A DNA stretch of 11,861 nucleotides. Source: a virus. Taxonomy: Duplodnaviria > Heunggongvirae > Uroviricota > Caudoviricetes. The DNA lies in IMG/VR virus record IMGVR_UViG_2585427739_000006, one strand, 5' to 3'. Position 1 is the stretch's first letter; each line of letters starts with the position of its first letter. This document shows, piece after piece, positions 356 to 11,861 of this stretch. The notes beneath the pieces were generated by a model. The model saw nothing but the letters and a program-made list of their open reading frames with translations, was not told where the DNA came from and did not search any database. The translations under genes and the position numbers were made by a program.

Positions 356-2827
356 TTAAGAATCAGCCTGACTCGGGATCAGTTTTTGCCAGATAACTGA
401 AACGTATTTTGCCTGGTAACGGGCGTCATCAAGTGCATTATGGCGCTCACCTTCGAATGGAATAGCCGTTCTGGCATCGAAGTCTATGGCTTTCCCCAGC
501 TCAACGATTGTGCGTACATCGCGATCGTTGTAGTAACGCCACGGGCAGGGGATCCCCTGCCGTTCGTATGAACGGCGCAAAATCGTGTTGTCGAAGTTGG
601 CTCCATTTCCCCAGACCTGAACAAAAAATTCACCGGAGTTTTCGTCGATAAATTCCCGCAATTGTAACAGTGCATCATCTAACGGGATTTCATCGGTCAT
701 AATGGCAGATTGCGCTTCGCGTGATTGCTTAAGCCACCATTTAATGGTGTTCCGATCAATGACTCCGCCAGCAGTTTCCAGATCGATAGTCTTACTAAAT
801 TCCGGTCCCATATCTCCGGTTTGCGGATCGAAAAATATTGCACCTATTGAGATGATCGGGGCATCAGGATTTTTTCCCATGGTTTCAAGGTCGATCATTA
901 GATGGTCACACGTCCTGCTGGTGGATGTGATTTCGTGATGACCGTTCACCTTAATTGAGTGATCTGCCGTCTCGCCAGTTTCATTATCGCTATTGTGATG
1001 CTGATTGCCGCCAGTGTTCTCCTTGTGTGGATGTTCAGCGCCTTCCATTTCCTCCGGATCATCTTCCTGAACTTCAACCTGATATTCTTCATCGAATGTT
1101 TCTTGATATGTTGCGTCGCCCATCACCGCGCCACAATCAGGGCAGTTGCCGCCGCCGGTCTGACCGCAGGCGGTGCAGACTTTTTCCACTTCCTGTTGCG
1201 CCACTGGTTCAGGCTGTTTCGTTTCTGGCTCGTTTTGTAACGCATTTGTGCTGTTTTGTTCCGCTTTTTGGTAGTTCCGTTCCGATTCATGCTGGTTCTG
1301 GTTCACAGAATCGCGGGTCTGGATCCCCTTAACCCATTTCGGATCATTCGGGTCACTAATCCCTTCAACAAATTCACCACGTGATGCAGCAAGCAACTTA
1401 TCGGCGTCAGGCTGGCTGATATTGGCTGCCTGCATAATTTTGTTTACTTCGTCAGCGGTAACTTTTATCGGCTCTGGTTGTTCTGAATCTTCAGCGGTAT
1501 CTACATTTTGCGGTAAGCCCGTGTATGTGCCATTTTTTCGGGCAAAATATTCTTCTTTTGTGATTTCAGTGGCGCCAGCAGCCAGTGCCTTATCCAGACC
1601 AGAAAGTTTGTTTGCGCGACCGTATTTTTCTCCGTCCTTATCTGCGAAGAGGAAATAGAACGGCCCCTCACGCTCTACAGATGGTTCAGCTTCCGGCGCG
1701 GTTTCATTTTTTGGGATATCAGATACCTCAGTTTCCACTGCATCAGTTTGTGTTTCTGATGACTGGAGAACATCAACAGTGCCCAGGTCTGTTTCTTCAT
1801 TCTCAAACACGCCCTTTGTCGTCAGGTATTCGCAGATATATTTGTTCAGTGCTATGGGATCTTTGTGAATGTCGATCGGACGCTCACGGACAAGGCCAAA
1901 AATAGTCTGGCGGTCGTAGCGAAGGGCATCAGGCTGTTTGCGCATTGATGCCGAGATACGCTTCCAGTCTTCGCGGTCGTTGTCGATAACTTCATTTTTT
2001 GCCCAGCGATGGATGCTGCCGTCAATGTTTCCGGCATCCACATCACCAGGCCAGAGAGCGTAGGCCAGTTCGTCATCCAGTGTTTTCCATGTCTGCTTGT
2101 ATTCGCGATGAATGGCAGCAATGACCAGGCTGATTTTTCCTGTTGAATTTTCAGTGTGCTGTTGATTGACTCTGGCGCGGGCGAGATCAACAACAGACGT
2201 GTATTTTCCGGTTTCCTTGCGTTCACCTTCGCGACGTTTTTTCCAGATGCGCATCTCTGCCTGAATTTCGGGCCATTTAGCACCAGGAATACATTTATGC
2301 TTAACCCACCCAATGGCGTGCAACTTAAGCTCCGGATACATGGCGTTAACTTCTGGCATTTTCATCAACGCTTCAACGATATGTCCGTCGAATGTTGCCA
2401 TGTCTTCCTGCAACAATTCCTGTGCGCTAATAACCATATCAACGGTGATGTTTTCACATGTGTCGAACTTAACCATGACAGCGTTCTGTACTTCAGGGGC
2501 CAGCTTGTCAAAAGTGACGTTCATCGGATCGGATTCAGTCTCAACCGGGACAAAAGAAGCAGACTCCTCATCCCAGCGGTTTTCCTGCATATATTCAGCA
2601 TCCCATGAATCGAGGGCAGGGCGGGGTATGCCAGGTTTATCCTCGCAGACAATAAATTTATAAGCGCAGTCCTGAGCAGCCGGATAATGTTCCAGGAACT
2701 GCCAGTGAAATTTTGCTCGAGCACGGCGTTCGTCGCCAGCTTCAATGGCTGTGGCTACAGCCACAGCGCCTTCTTCCCTTGTTGCCAGTTCGTCAGGAAT
2801 AGCGGCGCAAATAAAGACTTTACTCAT
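356..2827 (-). CDS. Large phage-type exonuclease (823 aa): unknown N-terminal/central region, CxxC-x7-CxxC zinc ribbon, acidic/His-rich linker, C-terminal DEDDh (DnaQ-like) 3'-5' exonuclease domain
   Basis: Uninterrupted 2.47-kb ORF with ATG at 2827 and a GAGG about 10 nt upstream. The last ~185 aa (nt ~359..913) carry Exo I MIDLETMG, Exo II VWGNGANFDNTIL and Exo III HNALDDARY motifs. Zinc ribbon CTACGQTGGGNCPDCG maps to nt 1133..1177. It sits at the position of ydfE downstream of ydfD in the Qin arrangement as I recall it. Confidence 0.8.
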   Translation of the reverse strand: MSKVFICAAIPDELATREEGAVAVATAIEAGDERRARAKFHWQFLEHYPAAQDCAYKFIVCEDKPGIPRPALDSWDAEYMQENRWDEESASFVPVETESDPMNVTFDKLAPEVQNAVMVKFDTCENITVDMVISAQELLQEDMATFDGHIVEALMKMPEVNAMYPELKLHAIGWVKHKCIPGAKWPEIQAEMRIWKKRREGERKETGKYTSVVDLARARVNQQHTENSTGKISLVIAAIHREYKQTWKTLDDELAYALWPGDVDAGNIDGSIHRWAKNEVIDNDREDWKRISASMRKQPDALRYDRQTIFGLVRERPIDIHKDPIALNKYICEYLTTKGVFENEETDLGTVDVLQSSETQTDAVETEVSDIPKNETAPEAEPSVEREGPFYFLFADKDGEKYGRANKLSGLDKALAAGATEITKEEYFARKNGTYTGLPQNVDTAEDSEQPEPIKVTADEVNKIMQAANISQPDADKLLAASRGEFVEGISDPNDPKWVKGIQTRDSVNQNQHESERNYQKAEQNSTNALQNEPETKQPEPVAQQEVEKVCTACGQTGGGNCPDCGAVMGDATYQETFDEEYQVEVQEDDPEEMEGAEHPHKENTGGNQHHNSDNETGETADHSIKVNGHHEITSTSRTCDHLMIDLETMGKNPDAPIISIGAIFFDPQTGDMGPEFSKTIDLETAGGVIDRNTIKWWLKQSREAQSAIMTDEIPLDDALLQLREFIDENSGEFFVQVWGNGANFDNTILRRSYERQGIPCPWRYYNDRDVRTIVELGKAIDFDARTAIPFEGERHNALDDARYQAKYVSVIWQKLIPSQADS

Positions 2828-2920: not shown

Positions 2921-3112
2921 TTAAAGACCTGCCGGGATTTCGATATTATCCTGGTGAATAACTTTATCGACCGGGTAACAGTTACCGGGAATTTTCTGTT
3001 CGGTTGCTGCAGTCATACACTCCTGCATTGTCCTGTGAACACTGACTGCAATATCAACTGGCTCTCCGGAAACAAGAAAAACTGTCAGAACAAGCGCAAA
3101 TGCTGAATTCAT
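2921..3112 (-). CDS. ydfD: YdfD-like small membrane/lysis protein (63 aa) with N-terminal hydrophobic segment
   Basis: ATG at 3112 with AAGGA 8 nt upstream; protein MNSAFALVLTVFLVSGEPVD... matches my recollection of Qin YdfD. Its start overlaps the dicB stop in an ATGA arrangement. The ORF-track start at 3166 lacks a ribosome-binding site. Confidence 0.6.
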   Translation of the reverse strand: MNSAFALVLTVFLVSGEPVDIAVSVHRTMQECMTAATEQKIPGNCYPVDKVIHQDNIEIPAGL

Positions 3113-3297
3113 TGTGCACATCCTTTTGGCATCAGACGTAAACGAGCCAGCATTGAAACAATGCATATTTTATTTAATAGCTCCCGTTCTTGTTTTCTCT
3201 TGTTAATGGCATCTTCAGTAAATACAGGGTTACTGATAGTGACACCAATTTCAAAACAACCTTCAGACGTATTAACGTTTGGTAATAACGTTTTCAT
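3109..3297 (-). CDS. dicB: DicB cell-division inhibitor (62 aa)
   Basis: ATG at 3297 with GAGGA 7 nt upstream; translation MKTLLPNVNTSEGCFEIGVTISNPVFTEDAINKRKQERELLNKICIVSMLARLRLMPKGCAQ matches E. coli K-12 DicB as I recall it. The longer 97-aa ORF-track version has no ribosome-binding site. Confidence 0.75.
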   Translation of the reverse strand: MKTLLPNVNTSEGCFEIGVTISNPVFTEDAINKRKQERELLNKICIVSMLARLRLMPKGCAQ

Positions 3298-3466: not shown

Positions 3467-3524
3467 AAAAACGGCGGCAGAGCAGTCACGGAGTAAAACT
3501 GATACCGCCAAACGTCACCAGAAA
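3467..3524 (-). ncRNA. dicF: DicF small RNA (ftsZ-targeting sRNA of the dicB operon), 53 nt plus 3' U-run
   Basis: Minus-strand sequence TTTCTGGTGACGTTTGGCGGTATCAGTTTTACTCCGTGACTGCTCTGCCGCCG followed by TTTTT. This agrees at 52 of 53 positions with the K-12 DicF sequence as I remember it, and it lies immediately upstream of dicB as in Qin. Confidence 0.75.
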
Positions 3525-3643
3525 ATTGATAACAGAGGGCGTTGCAGCGGGGTTGTCACTTAAGCGTATGGTCAACCTGACAACTCGGTGTCCTCAACGG
3601 GGAAGAAATACCCCCGCCATACTTACCGCCGCGCCATTTCGCG

Positions 3644-3720
3644 GGTTGCCACAACCGGAAGCGCACGGTCGAATTAAATTTAACGACACCGTACAGTGAG
3701 ACGAACTTCGCCGTGCGCTT
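3644..3720 (-). promoter_or_regulatory. Structured untranslated leader upstream of dicF: 10-bp perfect inverted repeat with nested palindromes (candidate RNA processing or regulatory structure)
   Basis: AAGCGCACGG (3659..3668) pairs with CCGTGCGCTT (3711..3720) around a 42-nt loop that itself contains GTCG/CGAC flanking the palindrome TTAAATTTAA (3674..3683). A small GGTTG/CAACC hairpin lies at 3644..3656. No convincing ORF in 3525..3799 on the minus strand. Confidence 0.3.
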
Positions 3721-3799
3721 TCGTGTTGTGTGCCTGCTTTTAACCACGTCAGGCGAGGTGGTATCCTTCTTATTCCGAATAACCAAGAAGGAAATCTAT

Positions 3800-4000
3800 A
3801 TGACTAAAGAAGAATTTGTCTCTTATATTTTTGATAAAACGGTTGAAATGTATGCCGCTACTTACGGGTCCTGTAATCCTCTGAATAAACCAGAGGGGAA
3901 AGATGATTTCGACAAAATTTACCGCTTCTTGGAGGACCGCTATATCAAAAGGTTAGAGGACGCAGGGATCAAATCCCCAGTGAAGTCACCATTGTCCTGA
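3800..4000 (+). CDS. Hypothetical protein, 66 aa, AT-rich gene antisense to the leftward operon
   Basis: ATG at 3800 preceded by AAGGA with a 7-nt spacer; first 100 bp are about 37% GC. No recognisable motif. Its 3' end overlaps the convergent 121-aa gene by 32 bp. Confidence 0.45.
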   Translation: MTKEEFVSYIFDKTVEMYAATYGSCNPLNKPEGKDDFDKIYRFLEDRYIKRLEDAGIKSPVKSPLS

Positions 4001-4334
4001 GAACTTGCAGGACGTCATGATCGTAACTTCCATCCAAACCGCGACGGCAAATTGCTTCTCGTATTACCGGAAGCAGTTCGCTGGAAATCTCGGTGCATAT
4101 TTCACCTGCTAATACGCCTGGCTCAAGTGAGAATATTGGTGAACTTACGGTCTTGGTCTCGACAGTTTCAGAGTCAGTGCCAACATTATAAAGCTCAACG
4201 AAAGCGGTCTTGATTTTCCGGGCCAGATCTTTTGCTGGCTCGCTTGCAATATCTTTCCCGATTTCTCGCAGCACAGAATGCAATGTATGAGCTGCTGTTT
4301 TCTGTACATCAGACGGTAAATCTTTAAATTCCAT
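3969..4334 (-). CDS. Hypothetical protein, 121 aa, at the position where a cI/DicA-type repressor would be expected
   Basis: ATG at 4334 with GAGG 6 nt upstream (the ORF-track start at 4346 has none). No obvious helix-turn-helix. Divergent from the rightward operon across a 212-bp intergenic region. Confidence 0.5.
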   Translation of the reverse strand: MEFKDLPSDVQKTAAHTLHSVLREIGKDIASEPAKDLARKIKTAFVELYNVGTDSETVETKTVSSPIFSLEPGVLAGEICTEISSELLPVIREAICRRGLDGSYDHDVLQVLRTMVTSLGI

Positions 4335-4546
4335 CGTCAGCCTCATCAGTCAGTGTTTCTGGCTAACCAGCAACGCGCGCCAGATTCGGTTTTAAACGTT
4401 TTGCTTTTGGTATATGTCATCGCGGTGAACGTACCGTCCTGGTTGGGGAACACGCCACATACAGGAGGCATCTGGCGGCGAGCTTCTGTATGATCCCAAG
4501 GTTTATGACGAATATCGTAAGACGAAGCGGGCGGGGCGGTTGAACA

Positions 4547-5068
4547 ATGAAAATCACTCCTGAACAGGCTCGTGAGGCTCTGGATGCCTGGATATGTCGA
4601 CCAGGAATGACACAGGAGCAGGCGACGATATTAATCACTGAAGCATTCTGGGCTTTGAAAGAGCGCCCGAACATCGATGTTCAGCGTGTCACAGATGAAG
4701 GTGGCGCGGTTGATCAGCGAGCGCTTGGCGTTAATCGAGTGAAGATATTCGAACGCTGGAAGGCTATCGACACTAGGGATAAGCGTGAAAAGTTCACGGC
4801 GCTAGTGCCTGCAATTATGGAGGCTATCCGGATTAATGATTTCAGGTTGTATCGTGAAATTAGTGACGGAAAAAGCATCACGTACATGATCGCCGGGTTA
4901 AACAAAGAATATGGCGATGTGGTGGAGTCCGGACTGCTTTTTGCTGATCCTGCCGTAGTGGATCGTGAAACTGACGAACTTATAGAAAAAGCAATTGCTT
5001 TCAAACTTGCGTATCGACAGCAATACCAACAAAAAGCTGGATGGAATTATGAGCCTTCTTTTTGCTGA
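4547..5068 (+). CDS. YdaT-like protein (173 aa), possible CII-analogous regulator; first gene of the rightward operon
   Basis: ATG at 4547 directly after an in-frame TGA. The segment ...RWKAIDTRDKREKFTALVPAIMEAIR... resembles what I recall of the Rac/CP-933P YdaT family. Assignment is from memory and tentative. Confidence 0.55.
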   Translation: MKITPEQAREALDAWICRPGMTQEQATILITEAFWALKERPNIDVQRVTDEGGAVDQRALGVNRVKIFERWKAIDTRDKREKFTALVPAIMEAIRINDFRLYREISDGKSITYMIAGLNKEYGDVVESGLLFADPAVVDRETDELIEKAIAFKLAYRQQYQQKAGWNYEPSFC

Positions 5069-6014
5069 ACGCCCACTGGTTATAAACACACAGCTTGCGA
5101 TGAAGATTGGCTTAAATGAAGCCATTGTGTTGCAGCAGTTGCATTACTGGTTGAGAGATACCAATTCCGGCATGGAATGTGATGGTGTTCGCTGGATTTA
5201 CAACACAACGGAACAATGGCTGGAACAGTTCCCATTCTGGTCAGAGTCAACGTTAAAGCGCGCGTTTGCAAGTCTGAAAACGCTGGGGCTTTTGCGTTGT
5301 GAAAAGCTCAATAAATCAAAGCGCGATATGACCAATTTCTACACGATCAACTATGGGAACGAGCTTTTAGATGGTGGCAAATTGAACGAATCCATCGGTT
5401 CAAAATGCGCCGCTCCATCAGGTCAAAATGACACGATGGAAGAGGTCAAAATGAAACGCTCCATTGGTTCAAAACGACCCAATGTCATCGGGTCAAAATG
5501 GCCTGATGATCTTACAGAGAATACAACAGAGATTACTACAGAGAATAAAAACACTTTTCGTCCGGAAGCTTCGCAACCGGACCCGCAGACCGCTGAACAG
5601 GATTTTTTAATCCGGAACCCCGACGCGGTTGTGTTTAGTGCGAAAAAACGCCAGTGGGGTAGCAGGGAGGATTTGGCGTGTGCGCAGTGGATTTGGGGGC
5701 GGATCGTGAACCTTTACGAACAGACTGCCAGCGACGATGGAGAGATCATGCGACCAAAAGAGCCTAACTGGACAGCCTGGGCCAATGACGTGCGCACAAT
5801 GCGGATGCTGGATGGCAGAAGCCACAGACAAATTTGCGAAATGTTTGGTCGGGTACAGCGAGATCCATTCTGGGTAAAAAACATCATGAGCCCGTCAAAA
5901 CTCCGCGAAAAATGGGACGAACTGGTCATCCGCTTGGGACGTTCACCTGTACAGCGTTGTGTGAATCATATTTCTGAACCGGATACAGAAATTCCGCCTG
6001 GTTTCAGGGGATAA
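5049..6014 (+). CDS. Replication initiator, lambda O-like (origin-binding), about 321 aa
   Basis: Long ORF containing the iteron array in its middle, as in lambda O, where ori lies inside the gene. Start is uncertain: ATG 5049 has a weak ribosome-binding site; TTG 4995 and ATG 5100 are alternatives. Overlaps the upstream gene by 20 nt. Confidence 0.7.
   Translation: MSLLFAERPLVINTQLAMKIGLNEAIVLQQLHYWLRDTNSGMECDGVRWIYNTTEQWLEQFPFWSESTLKRAFASLKTLGLLRCEKLNKSKRDMTNFYTINYGNELLDGGKLNESIGSKCAAPSGQNDTMEEVKMKRSIGSKRPNVIGSKWPDDLTENTTEITTENKNTFRPEASQPDPQTAEQDFLIRNPDAVVFSAKKRQWGSREDLACAQWIWGRIVNLYEQTASDDGEIMRPKEPNWTAWANDVRTMRMLDGRSHRQICEMFGRVQRDPFWVKNIMSPSKLREKWDELVIRLGRSPVQRCVNHISEPDTEIPPGFRG
5392..5501. 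repeat. Origin iterons: five direct repeats at 23-24 bp spacing
   Basis: TCCATCGGTTCAAAATG (5392..5408), TCCATCAGGTCAAAATG (5415..5431), AGAGGTCAAAATG (5442..5454), TCCATTGGTTCAAAACG (5461..5477), TCATCGGGTCAAAATG (5486..5501). Core GGT(T)CAAAA(T/C)G ends at 5408, 5431, 5454, 5477 and 5501. Confidence 0.78.
5515..5550. repeat. AT-rich block of three 12-bp direct repeats adjacent to the iterons (candidate DNA-unwinding element of ori)
   Basis: ACAGAGAATACA / ACAGAGATTACT / ACAGAGAATAAA in tandem, immediately after the iteron array. Mirrors the iteron-plus-AT-rich layout of lambdoid origins. Confidence 0.55.
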
Positions 6015-6054
6015 GTGTTGATTTCAGGTCATGAGGTAATTTTAAGGAGGACTT

Positions 6055-6453
6055 GTGGCAAAAGTTTTTACACAGGAAGAGCGGGAAAAAATTAAAGAGC
6101 AGGTGGTCGAACTTGTGCGCCAGAGCGGTCGCGAGACATTACGACAGTTGGAAGCTAAAACAGGTGCGACAAGATATCTGATGAGCATTCTTGCCAGAGA
6201 GCTGGTTGCCAGTGGTTATGTATACAACTCCGGCTACGGGTTATTCCCGTCTGAACAGGCACGAAAGGACTGGCAAAATGCCCGCAAAAAACTCTCTAGG
6301 GCGAAGGTGAAGAAACCCGCTGTGGTTGATCCGGACCTTATCTGGTCACTACCTGATGGAGAAATACGTCGCTACGACAGTCGTCTAAACATAATCTGTC
6401 GCGAGTGCCGGAAGAGCGAAGTTATGCAGCGCATACTGGCATTTTATCAGTGA
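6055..6453 (+). CDS. Hypothetical protein, 132 aa, possibly a winged-helix DNA-binding protein
   Basis: GTG start at 6055 with AAGGAGG at 6044..6050 (short 4-nt spacer). The segment ETLRQLEAKTGATRYLMSILARELVASGYV looks helix-turn-helix-like. No family recognised. Confidence 0.55.
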   Translation: MAKVFTQEEREKIKEQVVELVRQSGRETLRQLEAKTGATRYLMSILARELVASGYVYNSGYGLFPSEQARKDWQNARKKLSRAKVKKPAVVDPDLIWSLPDGEIRRYDSRLNIICRECRKSEVMQRILAFYQ

Positions 6454-6545
6454 AATTTTCGTTATTTATAGACGTAACTAGATTAAAGAGCATTAGTTCA
6501 GATGTGAATTGACATTTTCACGGCACAGGATTGAGCTAGCGTGGT

Positions 6546-6571
6546 TGTCTGCTTTGCGTCAAAAGCAGATA
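6546..6571. other. Hairpin in the 181-bp intergenic region, with a nearby consensus -35 hexamer
   Basis: TCTGCTTT (6548..6555) pairs with AAAGCAGA (6562..6569) around a 6-nt loop, with no U-tract after it. TTGACA lies at 6509..6514 but no good -10 follows at 16-18 bp. Confidence 0.3.
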
Positions 6572-6634
6572 TTACCAGATTTAGACATCTATTCCCGATA
6601 GCCCTGCTCTGATGCCACACTCTGTGCTATTTTC

Positions 6635-7096
6635 ATGACCCCAATAAAAATATTTATGACTATTGCTGATTTCAAACGGCCTAAATTGGAGCTCCCAAAC
6701 GGGGCAAACAAACTACTACTGCACTCTTGCTGTGCTCCATGTTCCGGTGAAGTGATGGAGGCGCTTCAGGCCTCGGGAATCGACTATACCATCTTTTTCT
6801 ACAACCCGAACATTCATCCTCAGAAAGAGTATTTAATTCGTAAGGATGAGAATATTCGCTTTGCTGAACAACACGGCGTGCCATTTATTGATGCTGATTA
6901 CGACACAGACAACTGGTTTGAACGTGCCAAAGGAATGGAATGGGAACCCGAGAGGGGGATCCGTTGTACCATGTGTTTTGACATGCGTTTTGAGCGGACA
7001 GCGCTGTACGCTGCTGAAAATGGTTTCAGTGTGATCAGCAGTTCACTGGGCATTTCACGCTGGAAAAATATGCAGCAGGTTACCGTCACTGGATAA
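6635..7096 (+). CDS. QueH/DUF208-like protein (153 aa), possibly C-terminally truncated
   Basis: Contains [20 protein letters not shown] and [11 protein letters not shown], which match the signature motifs I associate with the DUF208/QueH family. It is shorter than typical QueH and ends at a TAA that is in frame with the next gene. No ribosome-binding site at either candidate ATG (6635, 6656). Confidence 0.5.
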
Positions 7097-7171
7097 TCTC
7101 AGTCAGATTGCCTTACTCCGAACGCCCACCGCGTCCGTCCCGTACATTCCAGCAACGCATCTGGAGGTAAC

Positions 7172-8221
7172 GTGCGGGTATTACTTCAACCTGTTCTGGT
7201 ACCGGAACTCGGGCTGGTGGTCGTTAAGCCGGGCCGTGAATCCATGCCGGTATTCCACAATACCCGGGTACTGGTGGAGCCGGAACCGAAAAGCATGCGT
7301 AATCTGCCGTCCGGGGTCGTTCCTGCCGTTCGCCAGCCGCTGGTGGAAGACAAAACATTGCTGCCGTTTTTCAGTAACGCACGGGTAATTCGTGCTGCTG
7401 GTGGTGCTGGTGCATTGTCTGACTGGCTGTTGCGCCATATTAAATCCTGCCAGTGGCCACACGGCGATTATCATCACAGCGAAACCGTTATTCACCGTTA
7501 TGGTACCGGCGCAATGGTGTTGTGCTGGCACTGCGACAACCAGCTGCGTGACCAGACATCCGAATCACTCGAGCAACTTGCTCATCAAAACCTGTCAGCA
7601 TGGATGATTGACGTCATCGGTCACGCAATAAGCGGTACGCAGGAGCGTGAATTATCTCTGGCTGAATTATCCTGGTGGGCGGTCCGCAATCAGGTGGCGG
7701 ACGCGCTACCGGAAGTGGTATTACGTCGCTCGCTGGGATTACCAGCGGAAAAAAACTGCTCGGTGTACCGCGAAAGCGACATCGTACCGGGAGAGCAGAC
7801 CGCCACCAGCATATTGAAACAGCGCACAAAAAATCTTGCACCGTTGCCTCACGCCCACCAGCAACAAAACCCATCACAGGAAAAGACGGTGGTAAGCATC
7901 ACCGTTGATCCAGAGTCTCCGGAATCTTTCATGAAGCTGCCTAAACGTCACCGTTGGGTTAAGGAGAAATACACACGCTGGGTTAAGACACAGCCGTGTG
8001 CTTGCTGCGGTATGCCAGCCGACGATCCGCATCATCTGATTGGTCACGGGCAGGGCGGAATGGGAACCAAAGCACATGATCTCTTTGTGTTGCCTTTGTG
8101 CAGAAAGCATCACGACGAGTTGCATACGGATACCGTGGCATTTGAAGAGAAGTATGGCTCCCAACTGGAGCTGATTTTTCGATTTATCGATCGCGCGCTG
8201 GCAATTGGTGTGCTGGCCTAA
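7172..8221 (+). CDS. DUF968 (YdfU-like) protein with C-terminal HNH-type zinc-finger nuclease motif, 349 aa
   Basis: GTG start at 7172 with GGAGG at 7163..7167. C-terminus has [18 protein letters not shown]...[10 protein letters not shown] (CxxC...HH...CxxHH). Its length and its position just upstream of Q match Qin YdfU as I recall it. Confidence 0.78.
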
Positions 8222-8238
8222 TTTTGTGGAGTAAGTTG

Positions 8239-8616
8239 ATGCGTGATATTCAGATGGTTCTTGAGCGTTGGGGGGCATGGGCGGCTAATAATCATGAAGA
8301 TGTGACCTGGTCGTCCATTGCCGCCGGTTTTAAGGGATTAATTCCTTCAAAAGTAAGATCTCGTCCGCAATGCTGTGACGATGACGCGATGATCATTTGT
8401 GAATGTATGGCTCGCCTGAAAAAAAACAACAGCGATTTACATGATTTATTGGTGGACTATTATGTCGGCGGCATGACTTTTATGGCGCTTGCACGTAAGC
8501 ATGGGCGATCTGATTGTTGGGTTGGCAGGATGCTCCAGAAAGCTGAGGGCGTAGTGGAGGGCATGCTGATGGTGTTGGATCTCCGATTGGAGATGGATGC
8601 TGATTGTTCGAAATAA
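8239..8616 (+). CDS. Late-gene antiterminator Q, short phage-82/DLP12 QuuD type (125 aa)
   Basis: ATG at 8239 with GGAG 7 nt upstream. The protein [24 protein letters not shown]... resembles the short Q family as I recall it, and it is followed by a short leader and intrinsic terminator as expected for a pR'-tR' unit. Confidence 0.75.
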
Positions 8617-8771: not shown

Positions 8772-9296
8772 TTATTGTTTAACCCATAATAGTTCATTGA
8801 CATTGAATCCCAACTTTTGAGCGGTACGCACATAGTCTGCTTTTACATTATCTGGAATAGTTTGGGTCCTTGCCAGAATCCATAGGTATTCTCTGTTCGG
8901 ACCACTGACAAGAGCATACTTATACTCATCATCCAGTTTGATTACATTATAGCCACCATAGAAGGGGCCAAAAAACGAAACTTTCAACGCTGCAGTTTTA
9001 GTATCTCCAGTAAAGTATGCTTTACCTTCGCTCTCGCTCCATTTGTTTTTCGTTGGATCGTATCCACGGTTAAGTACGCGAATCCCTCCGTCGTTCCGTT
9101 TTTCATAAGTAGCGCTGACCTGTTCCAGACCACGTTCGAACCAGTTCTCGAGGCGAGCTATTTCATACCATTTTCCGAGGTAGCGGTTGGCGTCAAAATT
9201 TGTAATCGGCTGCACACCTTTAGGTGGTGTCGGGGCCTTACATGCTATAAGAGTGAAAGAGAGTGCAATGCCAGTCAACACAGGCCATAACTTCAT
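8772..9296 (-). CDS. blc: Bacterial lipocalin Blc-family outer-membrane lipoprotein (174 aa), diverged from E. coli chromosomal Blc
   Basis: Signal peptide with lipobox LIAC (Cys19). Conserved lipocalin segments NFDANRYLGKWYEIAR, GKAYFTG, ALKVSFFGPFYGGYNVI and YLWILART. AGGA 8 nt upstream of the ATG at 9296. Confidence 0.88.
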   Translation of the reverse strand: MKLWPVLTGIALSFTLIACKAPTPPKGVQPITNFDANRYLGKWYEIARLENWFERGLEQVSATYEKRNDGGIRVLNRGYDPTKNKWSESEGKAYFTGDTKTAALKVSFFGPFYGGYNVIKLDDEYKYALVSGPNREYLWILARTQTIPDNVKADYVRTAQKLGFNVNELLWVKQ

Positions 9297-9356
9297 AATA
9301 AATCCTGTACTTTTGATAGTTGAGAGGTAAGCGTCAACGGAGCACCGTATTGACGC

Positions 9357-10970
9357 TTATTTATTAGTGAGTACTACGTTCCATGGCAGGAGTTCGTCAA
9401 CTCGGTTGGAAGGCCATTCCGGCAGTACGCTCAGGATATGGCGCAGATACGCTTCCGGATCGATACCATTCAACCGGCAGGTGCCGATCAGCCCGTACAA
9501 CAGTGCACCACGCTCGCCGCCGTGATCGCTACCGAAGAACACGTAATTTTTCTTTCCGAGACAGACTGCACGAAGCGCTCTTTCCGCTGTGTTATTGTCC
9601 GCCTCCGCCAGACCGTCATCACAGAAGTTGCACAACGCAACCCAGTGCTTCCTGATATACCGGAACGCATCTCTCAGACGGCATTTTTTCGATAACGTGT
9701 GTTCTTTCTCCTGCATCAGCTTATACAGGGAAGTCAGTAGCGGTTTACTCTGCATTTGCCTGACCGCCAGGCGTTCAGACACCGGCAACCCGCGTATTTC
9801 GTGCTCAATGGCGTACAGTTCGCCGATTAGTTTCAGTGCTTCTTCCGCCGTCGCGCTTTTGGTACTGATATATACATCGTGGATTTTGCGCCGCGCATGA
9901 GCCCAGCATCCTGCTTCCGTCAACGCGCCGCCTTCACGTTCGGCACTGAACAGCCGATCGTAACCTGCGAACGCATCTGCCTGCAGGATACCCCGGAAGG
10001 GACGAAGGTGTTGCTCCGGATGTTTACCCTGATGGTCCGGTGAGTAGGCGAACCAGACCGCCGGAGGTTCTGGCGAACCGGCATTTCGGTCATCCCGGAC
10101 ATACGTCCAGATATATCCTGTTTTCGCCTTCTTCCTGCCCGGTGCCAGTACTTTTACTGGTGTGTCATCAGTGTGAACCTTGCGGGTGTTCATCACATAA
10201 CTGTACAGGGCATCATTCAGCGGCGTCATTAACTGGCAGCACGCATCAACCCAGTTGGAGAGTAAGGCACGGCTCAGTTCGACACCCTGGCGGGCAAAGA
10301 TTTCACTCTGACGATACAGTGGCAGGTGTTCGCAGTATTTTCCCGTTAACACGCGGGCAAGTAACCCCGGGCCCGCGATACCACGCTCTATCGGACGGGA
10401 TGGTGCCGGTGCTTCAACGATGCAGTCACATTTTGTACAGGCTTTTTTTACCCGTTCTGTGCGGATCACTTTCAGGGCGCTGCTCACCAGTTCCAGTTGT
10501 TCTGCGCTGACTTCCCCCAGATAATCCAGCTCACCGCCACACTCCGGGCAACAGCTTTCTTCAGGCTCCAGGCGGTATATTTCACGGGGGAGATGTGCCG
10601 GTAACGGACGACGATGGCGCGACTGTCGCAACTGGCGGGGAACCAGCGGGTCATCCTCACGCCCACTGTAACGATCGCTTTCCTGCTCGCGTTGTTTCAG
10701 CAGGGCTTCAGCCTGTTCAACCTCACGACGCAGTTTTTCAGAACGGGTTCCGAACAGCATCCGGCGCAGTTTTTCTATCTGAGCCCGCAGATGCTCTATT
10801 TCCCGTTCATCTTCTTCGATCTTTTCTTCGGCACGTGCCAGTGCAGAGCGCAGGAAGGCCTCCGTCTCTTCAACCAGACTCAGTTGCTGGTCTTTCTGAC
10901 GGAGGGCTTCAGCCTGCTCAGAGAGCAGCCTTTCCAGCTCAGCGATGCGAATGAGGTATTTCTGACTCAT
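9357..10970 (-). CDS. IS66-family transposase TnpC (537 aa)
   Basis: Long ORF with a coiled-coil/leucine-zipper-like N-terminus, a CxxC...CxxC zinc-finger region (CCPECGG...CTKCDC) and an acidic catalytic core, as in IS66 TnpC. Confidence 0.9.
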   Translation of the reverse strand: MSQKYLIRIAELERLLSEQAEALRQKDQQLSLVEETEAFLRSALARAEEKIEEDEREIEHLRAQIEKLRRMLFGTRSEKLRREVEQAEALLKQREQESDRYSGREDDPLVPRQLRQSRHRRPLPAHLPREIYRLEPEESCCPECGGELDYLGEVSAEQLELVSSALKVIRTERVKKACTKCDCIVEAPAPSRPIERGIAGPGLLARVLTGKYCEHLPLYRQSEIFARQGVELSRALLSNWVDACCQLMTPLNDALYSYVMNTRKVHTDDTPVKVLAPGRKKAKTGYIWTYVRDDRNAGSPEPPAVWFAYSPDHQGKHPEQHLRPFRGILQADAFAGYDRLFSAEREGGALTEAGCWAHARRKIHDVYISTKSATAEEALKLIGELYAIEHEIRGLPVSERLAVRQMQSKPLLTSLYKLMQEKEHTLSKKCRLRDAFRYIRKHWVALCNFCDDGLAEADNNTAERALRAVCLGKKNYVFFGSDHGGERGALLYGLIGTCRLNGIDPEAYLRHILSVLPEWPSNRVDELLPWNVVLTNK

Positions 10971-11000
10971 GGCCGTTTTTATAATGCGGTCAGGAGTTTT

Positions 11001-11351
11001 TTACAACATTGTCAGTGCGTTAAGGCGGGATGTTTTTGGCTGACGCCAGTCCAGCTTATCGAGGAGCATTGCCAGTTGCGAGCGGGTAATGGATATCTTA
11101 CCGTCACGCACCGCAGGCCAGATAAACTGACCTTCCTCAAGGCGTTTGGTGAACAGGCACAGACCATCAGCATCAGCCCACAGGATTTTAATCGTGTCTC
11201 CCCGTCGGCCACGGAAGATAAACAGGTGACCGGAGAAGGGGTTATCATCCAGCACATGCTGTATCTGCTCCCCCAGACCGTTGAAGGATTTACGCATATC
11301 AGTAACGCCGGCAACGAGCCAGATACGGGTACCTGATGGGAGTGAAATCAT
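11001..11351 (-). CDS. IS66-family accessory protein TnpB (Orf2, 116 aa)
   Basis: 116-aa ORF whose ATG (11351) overlaps the tnpA stop as ATGA. The sequence MISLPSGTRIWLVAGVTDMRKSFNGL... is typical of IS66 Orf2. Confidence 0.88.
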   Translation of the reverse strand: MISLPSGTRIWLVAGVTDMRKSFNGLGEQIQHVLDDNPFSGHLFIFRGRRGDTIKILWADADGLCLFTKRLEEGQFIWPAVRDGKISITRSQLAMLLDKLDWRQPKTSRLNALTML

Positions 11352-11785
11352 CGTCCCCTCCCGGTCAGCTCACGGATCAACACCGTGAGCAGCTCTGGTG
11401 AAGGATTTTCCAGCATCATTTTACCGTAATGGAATTCCACATGGCAGGAAGCTGCACAAGCACCTGATAATGCCTCCGGAGCAGGAGCATCTGTAGCACA
11501 GCGCGGGGTGTCGATAAGTTCCACTGGAACCAGAGTCGGAGAGGCCGGAAAAGATTGTGATACTGTAGGGCCTACAATAGTTGGAGGCATTCTACGAGAA
11601 ATACGTCCTTCTCTTTGCCAGAGGCGTAGCCATTTAAAAATCAGGTTGTTATCAACGCCATGTTCCCGGGCCAGTTGTGCAACATTGGCATTTGGTTTCG
11701 AAGCCAGTTCAACCATATGAAGTTTAAATTCATTAGAAAATATCCGGCGGGTTCCGGAGCGCCAGTCTGTAGGTTTATCCATCAA
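11348..11785 (-). CDS. IS66-family TnpA (Orf1, 145 aa), helix-turn-helix protein
   Basis: First ORF of the IS66 operon, starting 76 bp from the window edge; N-terminal helix-turn-helix-like region. Confidence 0.85.
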   Translation of the reverse strand: MMDKPTDWRSGTRRIFSNEFKLHMVELASKPNANVAQLAREHGVDNNLIFKWLRLWQREGRISRRMPPTIVGPTVSQSFPASPTLVPVELIDTPRCATDAPAPEALSGACAASCHVEFHYGKMMLENPSPELLTVLIRELTGRGR

Positions 11786-11861
11786 TAGAACTCCGTCTAA
11801 TTTAGAAGGAGCTCTAATTTAGTCTGCAAGGAGCAGGTGTTACAGACGGCATTGGCTTTAC

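Follow-up and report, generated by a model that had tools for sequence, protein, structure and literature searches.

A short QueH-like open reading frame (ORF) in a prophage of Escherichia coli and its co-framed downstream neighbour, the DUF968 gene ydfU, almost certainly owe their arrangement to an ordinary deletion that left a pseudogene behind, and the reading frame common to the two is coincidental. The deletion would represent a single event of illegitimate recombination, associated with microhomology, in the early-right (nin-like) region of the prophage. This result prevents a misreading of the locus as a QueH–HNH fusion or as a hint at nucleic-acid modification, neither of which is found here; the short QueH ORF should be regarded as a pseudogene, in line with the existing standard annotation.

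Truncated QueH beside a complete YdfU

The window, by which we mean the whole stretch of 11,861 nucleotides analysed here, belongs to a lambdoid prophage of the Qin type in E. coli. In strain 127, a sequence 100% identical to the QueH–ydfU region of the window has been annotated by PGAP; for the conversion of its coordinates, position 7001 of the strain 127 locus corresponds to position 6400 of the window. The features of the window are as follows.

1-285: IS1 fragment
356-2827, minus strand: gene for an 823-aa exonuclease
3472-3523, minus strand: DicF RNA
then a ydaT-like gene, followed by replication-region genes and a DUF977 gene (DUF977 at 6055-6453)
6656-7096, plus strand: QueH fragment (Pfam)
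7172-8221, plus strand: ydfU (Pfam; identical coordinates in PGAP)
8239-8616, plus strand: antiterminator Q gene, the next in the late-regulation module (PF06530, 171 bits; "antiterminator Q family protein" in PGAP)
8772-9296, minus strand: lipocalin gene (blc)
about 9332 to the end of the window: IS66-family element

The QueH-like ORF extends over 6635..7096 (153 aa), from ATG 6635 to TAA 7094-7096, and is followed by 75 nt with no stop up to the co-framed GTG at 7172, all of which agrees with the initial annotation. A second ATG at 6656 was taken as the start in PGAP and gives a product of 146 aa, to which ATG 6635 adds seven codons. In a Pfam search, the ORF matched QueH (PF02677, DUF208), a family of enzymes that reduce epoxyqueuosine to queuosine in tRNA, scoring 158.1 bits where the gathering threshold is 23.5. 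The match is strong over the N-terminal 126 of the 175 profile positions and ends there, confirming the earlier impression of a shortened C-terminus; in strain NCTC9022, by contrast, the prophage QueH of 221 aa covers positions 1-174. The last ~49 profile positions (127-175), which correspond to 80 residues of the 221-aa protein, are encoded nowhere downstream of the ORF, and four foreign residues stand at its end instead. No match to either the QueH-like or the DUF968 ORF was obtained in an NCBIfam search.

The 221-aa prophage QueH could be aligned over residues 20-196 with Thermotoga maritima QueH (PDB 7LC5), including a YCGCV motif common to both proteins. In the same alignment, the fragment in the window keeps the N-terminal CCAPC and central CxxC motifs (as HSCCAPC(S) and RCTMC), whereas the C-terminal YCGC(V) motif is absent; namely, the intact protein continues after QQV as NDCGRRAVAHYPG and has 80 more residues beyond MQQV (NDCGRRAVAHYPG...YCGCVYS...), while the ORF in the window closes with QQV TVTG and a stop. 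Judged by its sequence, the ORF is a gene fragment and not a member of the QueH family in its working form. In the crystal structure of QueH, conserved cysteines reportedly ligate a [4Fe-4S] cluster and an adjacent iron, and the loss of two of these cysteines should abolish the activity. We infer that the QueH remnant is most likely an inactive pseudogene, because the conserved C-terminal third including the YCGC motif is missing. In our search of the literature on prophage or lambdoid QueH, no relevant report was found.

The annotation of strain 127 describes the same region as two pseudogenes, and the pair is in this sense already known: 6656-7093 is [quoted passage not shown] and 7078-7170 is "hypothetical protein, incomplete, missing N-terminus". 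Both carry the usual PGAP mark of "incomplete; partial in the middle of a contig", and we see no difference from other pseudogenes marked in this way.

YdfU, on the other hand, is complete. GTG 7172 opens an ORF of 349 aa that runs to 8221, and its product matches DUF968 (PF06147) over all 171 profile positions with 257.8 bits and, with residues 1-349, phrog_96 ("HNH endonuclease") over all 334 positions. There is no N-terminal extension, and the N-terminus has no gap that a QueH domain could have filled. The match to HNHc_6 is weak (24.1 bits, below the threshold of 26.6), with CACCG...HH...CRKHHDELH visible in the sequence; in the classification of the His-Me finger superfamily, DUF968 falls into group 7 together with YbcO/DUF1364 (PMC5714182). 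Given its full-length Pfam and PHROG matches and its place just upstream of Q, YdfU in the window is ordinary with no notable difference from YdfU of the K-12 Qin prophage, and it is not fused to QueH. A dense and conserved cluster of Chi sites was also noticed inside ydfU, 130 nt from the TA dinucleotide of the junction described below.

The deletion junction and its intact parents

The gene order from which the locus in the window derives is seen in relatives with a full-length QueH, which the initial annotation had proposed to look for in related prophages and which was indeed found there as a 221-aa gene separate from ydfU. The intact loci are arranged as follows.

NCTC9022 (L001): queH (666 nt, 221 aa), hokD, rem, a 92-aa hypothetical gene, ydfU
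JNEC-KY174 (L002) and HS13-1 (L007): queH, hokD, a 90-92-aa hypothetical gene, ydfU
F11 (L008): queH, hokD, rem, a hypothetical gene, ydfU, Q, lipocalin
phage HannyBb (L005): queH, hokD, rem, a hypothetical gene, ydfU

The full-length QueH of HannyBb is 96.8% identical at the amino acid level (tblastn), and the proteins flanking YdfU in F11, Q and the lipocalin, have the same accessions as those in strain 127. Between queH and ydfU, the intact loci have two to four genes (hokD, rem in most of them, and the 90-92-aa gene). Compared with the intact module queH-hokD-rem-hypothetical gene-ydfU-Q (NCTC9022, F11, and HannyBb), the window is alike in its flanks and their order (DUF977, queH...ydfU, Q, and blc) with an arm-by-arm identity of 99.5-99.7%, but it lacks 1.36-1.73 kb, from queH codon 141 to about codon 63 of the hypothetical gene. 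hokD and rem are hence gone from the window, and two genes are partial.

The junction could be mapped to the nucleotide. On the left, positions 6403-7082 of the window are 99.7% identical to positions 1501-2180 of the NCTC9022 locus, in the region of its intact 666-nt queH; on the right, positions 7081-8221 are 92.1% identical to positions 3535-4675 of the same locus. The two BLAST arms overlap by two nucleotides, TA at 7081-7082, and the switch of the parent occurs at 7083 in a three-way alignment. In the left parent, queH reads ...CAGCAGGT TA ACGACTGTGG (...AGGT TA), and in the right parent the hypothetical gene reads ...CTCGAC TA CCGTCACTGG; the window reads ...CAGCAGGT TA CCGTCACTGG. The identical breakpoint was obtained against JNEC-KY174, HannyBb, HS13-1, and F11. 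The missing DNA amounts to 1356 bp relative to NCTC9022 and to about 1732 bp (~1.73 kb) relative to F11. As expected of a pseudogene derived from a deletion, the breakpoint maps to intact parental sequences, and both flanks are collinear with them. The features around the junction, all on the plus strand, are the following.

6656..7082, plus strand: 5' fragment of the prophage queH, codons 1-141 and the first base of codon 142, counted from the PGAP start
7081..7082, plus strand: deletion junction, a TA dinucleotide common to both parents
7083..7096, plus strand: out-of-frame tail of the QueH ORF, T-V-T-G and TAA, in foreign sequence that is not queH
7081..7170, plus strand: 3' remnant of the 90-92-aa hypothetical gene (phrog_1212), 29 codons and TAA, in frame +2 relative to queH
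7163..7167, plus strand: GGAGG Shine-Dalgarno sequence for ydfU, read from the sequence, inside the end of the hypothetical remnant and 4 nt before the GTG

In the deletion that we propose, codon 141/142 of queH was joined to the final 30 codons of the small gene that normally stands just ahead of ydfU. Lost in this event were the C-terminal 80 codons of queH, hokD with its toxin, rem, and about the first two thirds of the small gene itself. The crossover would lie in the common TA, after which comes an imperfect microhomology, the parents agreeing at eight of 12 positions past the TA. Beyond the junction, the queH frame enters foreign sequence and ends four codons later at the TAA. ydfU is left whole with its GGAGG and GTG kept, and YdfU is predicted to be made as a separate protein. 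Indeed, GGAGG 7163-7167 and GTG 7172 are conserved with the intact loci, and the layout of a stop, one nucleotide, and a start between the hypothetical gene and ydfU is alike in the intact L001, L002, L004, L007, and L008. The Q gene (8239-8616) is likewise untouched. A scan of 6400-7300 for promoters and terminators gave none above the shuffled expectation.

Several candidates for the cause of the break were considered and set aside. An extension of the BLAST alignment suggested a perfect microhomology of eight nucleotides, TACCGTCA, in F11, but F11 actually reads TATACGTCA, and only the TA and imperfect matches are common. No insertion sequence is present at the junction of the window. Chi and RecBCD were also rejected as the cause of the breakpoint, because the three plus-strand Chi sites to the right of the junction are in the wrong orientation to stop an exonuclease that comes from within the deleted segment.

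The shared frame and the stop-free spacer

The QueH and DUF968 ORFs are in the same frame (7172-6635 = 537 = 179x3), and between 6635 and 8221 only one stop interrupts this frame. The 25 codons between that stop and the GTG (7097-7171) contain no stop in the QueH frame and are translated as SQSDCLTPNAHRVRPVHSSNASGGN, beginning with SQSDCLTPNAHR. From this pattern, the initial annotation had raised two possibilities, namely a nonsense mutation that split an ancestral QueH–DUF968 fusion, and two genes that are coincidentally in frame, with a chance of about 10% for the latter. This estimate was about right: a common frame and 25 stop-free codons, taken jointly, have a probability of 0.096 for the base composition of the window, 0.100 for a uniform one, and 0.16 for shuffled versions of the 57%-GC spacer. 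Hardly any stop interrupts the spacer in any of the three forward frames, frame +1 having none and frame +2 only a terminal TAA. Of the 75-nt stretches placed off frame within real genes of the window, 23-50% are likewise free of stops. The co-framed, stop-free arrangement is no more than expected by chance, and the pattern alone carries no information.

The spacer itself is accounted for by the hypothetical gene. In frame +2, 7081..7170 encodes a 29-residue peptide that matches the C-termini of intact hypothetical proteins (in NCTC9022, and in JNEC-KY174 as YRHWIIYVRLPYSERPPRPSRTYQQRIWR before the stop), and the intact 90-92-aa protein matches phrog_1212. This remnant stops at TAA 7168-7170, one base before the GTG of ydfU. 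The "stop-free spacer" is genuine coding DNA that belongs to a third gene and is read in another frame, which also accounts for its lack of stops. The common frame of the two ORFs and the open gap between them are accidental, and the second of the two possibilities holds.

In favour of a fusion split at 7094-7096 stand the two co-framed ORFs with a single TAA and 25 open codons between them. The TAA is located 12 nt past the junction, within the sequence of another gene that is read out of frame; it is a stop made by the junction, present in neither parental frame, and did not arise by mutation of a QueH codon. The homology to QueH is not continued in the 25 codons, the Pfam match having stopped at position 126 of the profile, and the alignment of YdfU with its family is complete from the GTG onward, with no N-terminal extension. 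In the intact relatives, moreover, QueH is a separate protein, and 834-1582 nt and two to four genes separate the pair. The distance from the QueH stop to the ydfU start is 1206 nt in NCTC9022, 834 nt in JNEC-KY174, 840 nt in HS13-1, and 1582 nt in both HannyBb and F11, and the relative frame is 0 in NCTC9022, JNEC-KY174, and HS13-1 and +1 in HannyBb and F11. An in-frame pair separated by a stop is thus not conserved among the homologues. The initial annotation had itself held that variable spacing and frame would refute a split fusion. For this locus, the mapping of the junction already refutes such a fusion, which we consider exceedingly improbable. The same annotation had suggested that a QueH-type domain next to an HNH nuclease could relate to nucleic-acid modification; the adjacency was created by the deletion, and a functional link between QueH and HNH is therefore unsupported here.

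Frequency and origin of the deletion allele

The frequency of the allele was examined in 5426 complete genomes of E. coli, where a match was defined as coverage of the query at 80% or more. A 120-nt query centred on the junction of the window was matched in 10 genomes, while that centred on the corresponding point of intact queH was matched in 985, and the intact hypothetical gene across the TA was found in 2097. The allele in the window is a rare derived state. The region 6400-8300 is 100% identical in nine complete E. coli chromosomes and 99.9% identical in a tenth, which has an extra IS3. The genomes with the junction include strains 127, H2, NT1F25, KFu024, KMi012, STS73-1-E, CH4784, and EC190486. 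It is scarcely conceivable that the junction is an artefact of assembly or sequencing, given that the identical junction appears in 10 independently sequenced complete genomes. The allele probably goes back to one recent event because its carriers are 100% identical. As for queH itself, about 18% (about one fifth) of the complete E. coli genomes have the intact prophage gene.

The open frame from 6635 to 8221 with its single stop could also be read as functional: either the TAA is read through at a low level to give a fusion of the QueH fragment with YdfU, or the N-terminal fragment of QueH is kept for a function of its own. The allele persists with 100% identity in 10 genomes, whose hosts differ, and this would fit such a reading. 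Nevertheless, the stop is a TAA with T as the next base, the context in which termination is most efficient in E. coli, and readthrough is not expected. The fragment is also devoid of the conserved C-terminal YCGC motif; the allele is rare, with 10 genomes against 985 in which QueH is intact across the breakpoint; and the identity among the 10 reflects recent common descent rather than conservation. We give hardly any credence to a function of the fragment or of a readthrough product.

With an ordinary deletion, the origin of the two arms is still to be considered. Among the intact genomes examined, none has both arms at least 99% identical to the window. The left arm (queH) is 99.7% identical to NCTC9022 and 93.9% identical to LH10-b-1 (L006) and F11, while the right arm (ydfU onward) is 92% identical to NCTC9022 and 99.5% identical to LH10-b-1 and F11. 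Two different prophages may have been joined, or the flanks may have been exchanged afterwards. In the former case, illegitimate recombination would have occurred at the same junction between two lambdoid prophages resident in one cell, the left one similar to that of NCTC9022 and the right one to that of F11. The change of the closest relative from arm to arm favours this scenario, as does the number of places matching this module, the median of which is three per E. coli genome. Lambdoid prophages are mosaic, however, and the same pattern results if a simple deletion is preceded or followed by ordinary homologous exchange. The two queH alleles are, furthermore, identical over the ~40 nt that lead up to the junction, and no parental pair was identified. 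Recombination between two prophages is hence regarded as unlikely, and a simple deletion is preferred.

LH10-b-1 shares 2.2 kb of its right arm with the window at 99.5% identity but carries a different deletion. Its queH is intact and is followed by an AT-rich spacer of ~280 nt with an IS1 and then by a remnant of the hypothetical gene that begins at the exact same TA; the QueH stop and the ydfU start are 1154 nt apart in this allele. The left site of this deletion reads GCCTG TA TACGTCAAG in F11, and the junction of this type was found in one genome only. A deletion mediated by the IS1 was considered and rejected, because the IS1 of LH10-b-1 has its own 9-bp target duplication (AACGGAGCG) and lies ~270 nt from the junction. 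Reuse of the TA in LH10-b-1 counts against a purely random deletion, in that a random model would not predict it. The combination of two left ends with one right end could reflect a hot spot or a coincidence. When further truncations at the same TA were sought, 22 of 2119 genomes had no full match to the site, 11 of which were accounted for, and no clear hot spot emerged beyond n = 2.

A broader proposal would be that the deletion was not random and that TA 7081-7082 is a recurrent hot spot for breaks or recombination in the lambdoid late-regulation module and, separately, that the intact prophage QueH is a fitness gene for the B12-independent synthesis of queuosine; the QueG of the host needs cobalamin. 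We hold this proposal to be distinctly improbable. The putatively cobalamin-independent QueH borne by a prophage, the reused endpoint of the deletion, and the Chi cluster of ydfU are side points that may be worth a separate look.

Phage-borne QueH and the deletion endpoint upstream of ydfU

Full-length QueH is a protein of 221 aa and is carried on the lambdoid prophages of ~985 out of 5426 complete E. coli genomes. An isolated phage, HannyBb, was also found to encode full-length QueH, where the protein is annotated as hypothetical, and the corresponding PHROGs entry (phrog_3217) gives the function of the family as unknown. The copies of queH compared here are located as follows:

1754-2419 in the locus of strain NCTC9022: queH
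823-1509 in the locus of phage HannyBb: queH
6656-7082 in the window: 5' fragment of queH

E. coli already encodes QueG on its chromosome. Because this chromosomal enzyme is dependent on cobalamin, the phage QueH, which is predicted to be cobalamin-independent, might be a fitness gene. Our literature searches on QueH of prophages, including lambdoid ones, found no discussion of the subject.

In the window, queH is joined to the 3' end of the small hypothetical gene upstream of ydfU, and the right-hand TA endpoint of this deletion (7081-7082) is common to a second, different deletion allele, which was found only in the strain LH10-b-1. In this second allele, queH is intact, and hokD, rem and the 5' part of the small hypothetical gene are missing. 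The sites involved in the comparison of the two alleles are:

7081-7082 in the window
3090-3092 in the locus of LH10-b-1
3274-3276 and 4479-4480 in the locus of strain F11

The TA endpoint used twice may represent a hot spot, or else its re-use may be a coincidence.

Chi sites and architecture of ydfU

Chi (GCTGGTGG) is strongly over-represented in the window, with six sites against 0.3 expected from shuffled sequences. Five of the six fall in ydfU and span ~650 bp:

7213, 7339 and 7397, + strand: Chi sites inside ydfU, within the initial 230 nt of the gene
7803 and 7855, - strand: Chi sites inside ydfU, at gene positions 632 and 684
917, + strand: the sixth Chi site of the window

In this orientation, the Chi sites of ydfU would be active for a break located between the + group and the - group. 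A cluster of four to five sites is retained in ydfU of NCTC9022, JNEC-KY174, HS13-1, F11, phage HannyBb and a further intact locus (L004), with positions partly differing between the loci, and this is despite a nucleotide identity of 86-92% in the more distant of these ydfU loci.

As to the protein, YdfU appears to contain two Cys/His-rich modules (window 7172-7650 versus 7980-8150). The N-terminal module includes ...CWHCDNQL and lies outside the Pfam DUF968 model; a separate PHROG, phrog_11007, spans residues 2-135. The C-terminal module is DUF968/HNH-like, with CACCG...HH...CRKHHDELH.

Prophage type, carrier and cargo of the window

The following features lie in the window on either side of queH and ydfU:

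1-285: IS1 fragment encoding the C-terminal portion of its transposase, with 100% identity to IS1 of LH10-b-1; it adjoins the end of the exonuclease gene
356-2827, - strand: 823-aa exonuclease gene, with a C-terminal Rv2179c-like 3'-5' exonuclease domain (Pfam)
3472-3523, - strand: DicF antisense sRNA (Rfam RF00039, 72.5 bits, full length)
8772-9296, - strand: lipocalin/Blc-like lipoprotein gene (PF08212)
~9332-11861, - strand: IS66-family element, directly downstream of the lipocalin gene
9357-10970, - strand: TnpC of this element
11001-11351, - strand: Orf2/TnpB of this element
11348-11785, - strand: HTH protein of this element

Given DicF, together with the homologues of dicB and ydfD annotated in the identical locus of strain 127, the prophage is therefore of the Qin type. 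The window has an intact DUF977 gene (6055-6453), and the copy of this gene in strain 127 (5320-7054 of that locus) is broken by IS2; strain 127 is otherwise 99.9% identical to the window. Lacking this IS2, the window thus belongs to another carrier of this deletion allele than strain 127. The lipocalin/Blc-like gene comes straight after the Q antiterminator gene on the opposite strand and looks like cargo inserted in the leader region of the late operon. The homology of strain 127 to the window ends at 9331, at which place strain 127 has a YbgA-family gene.
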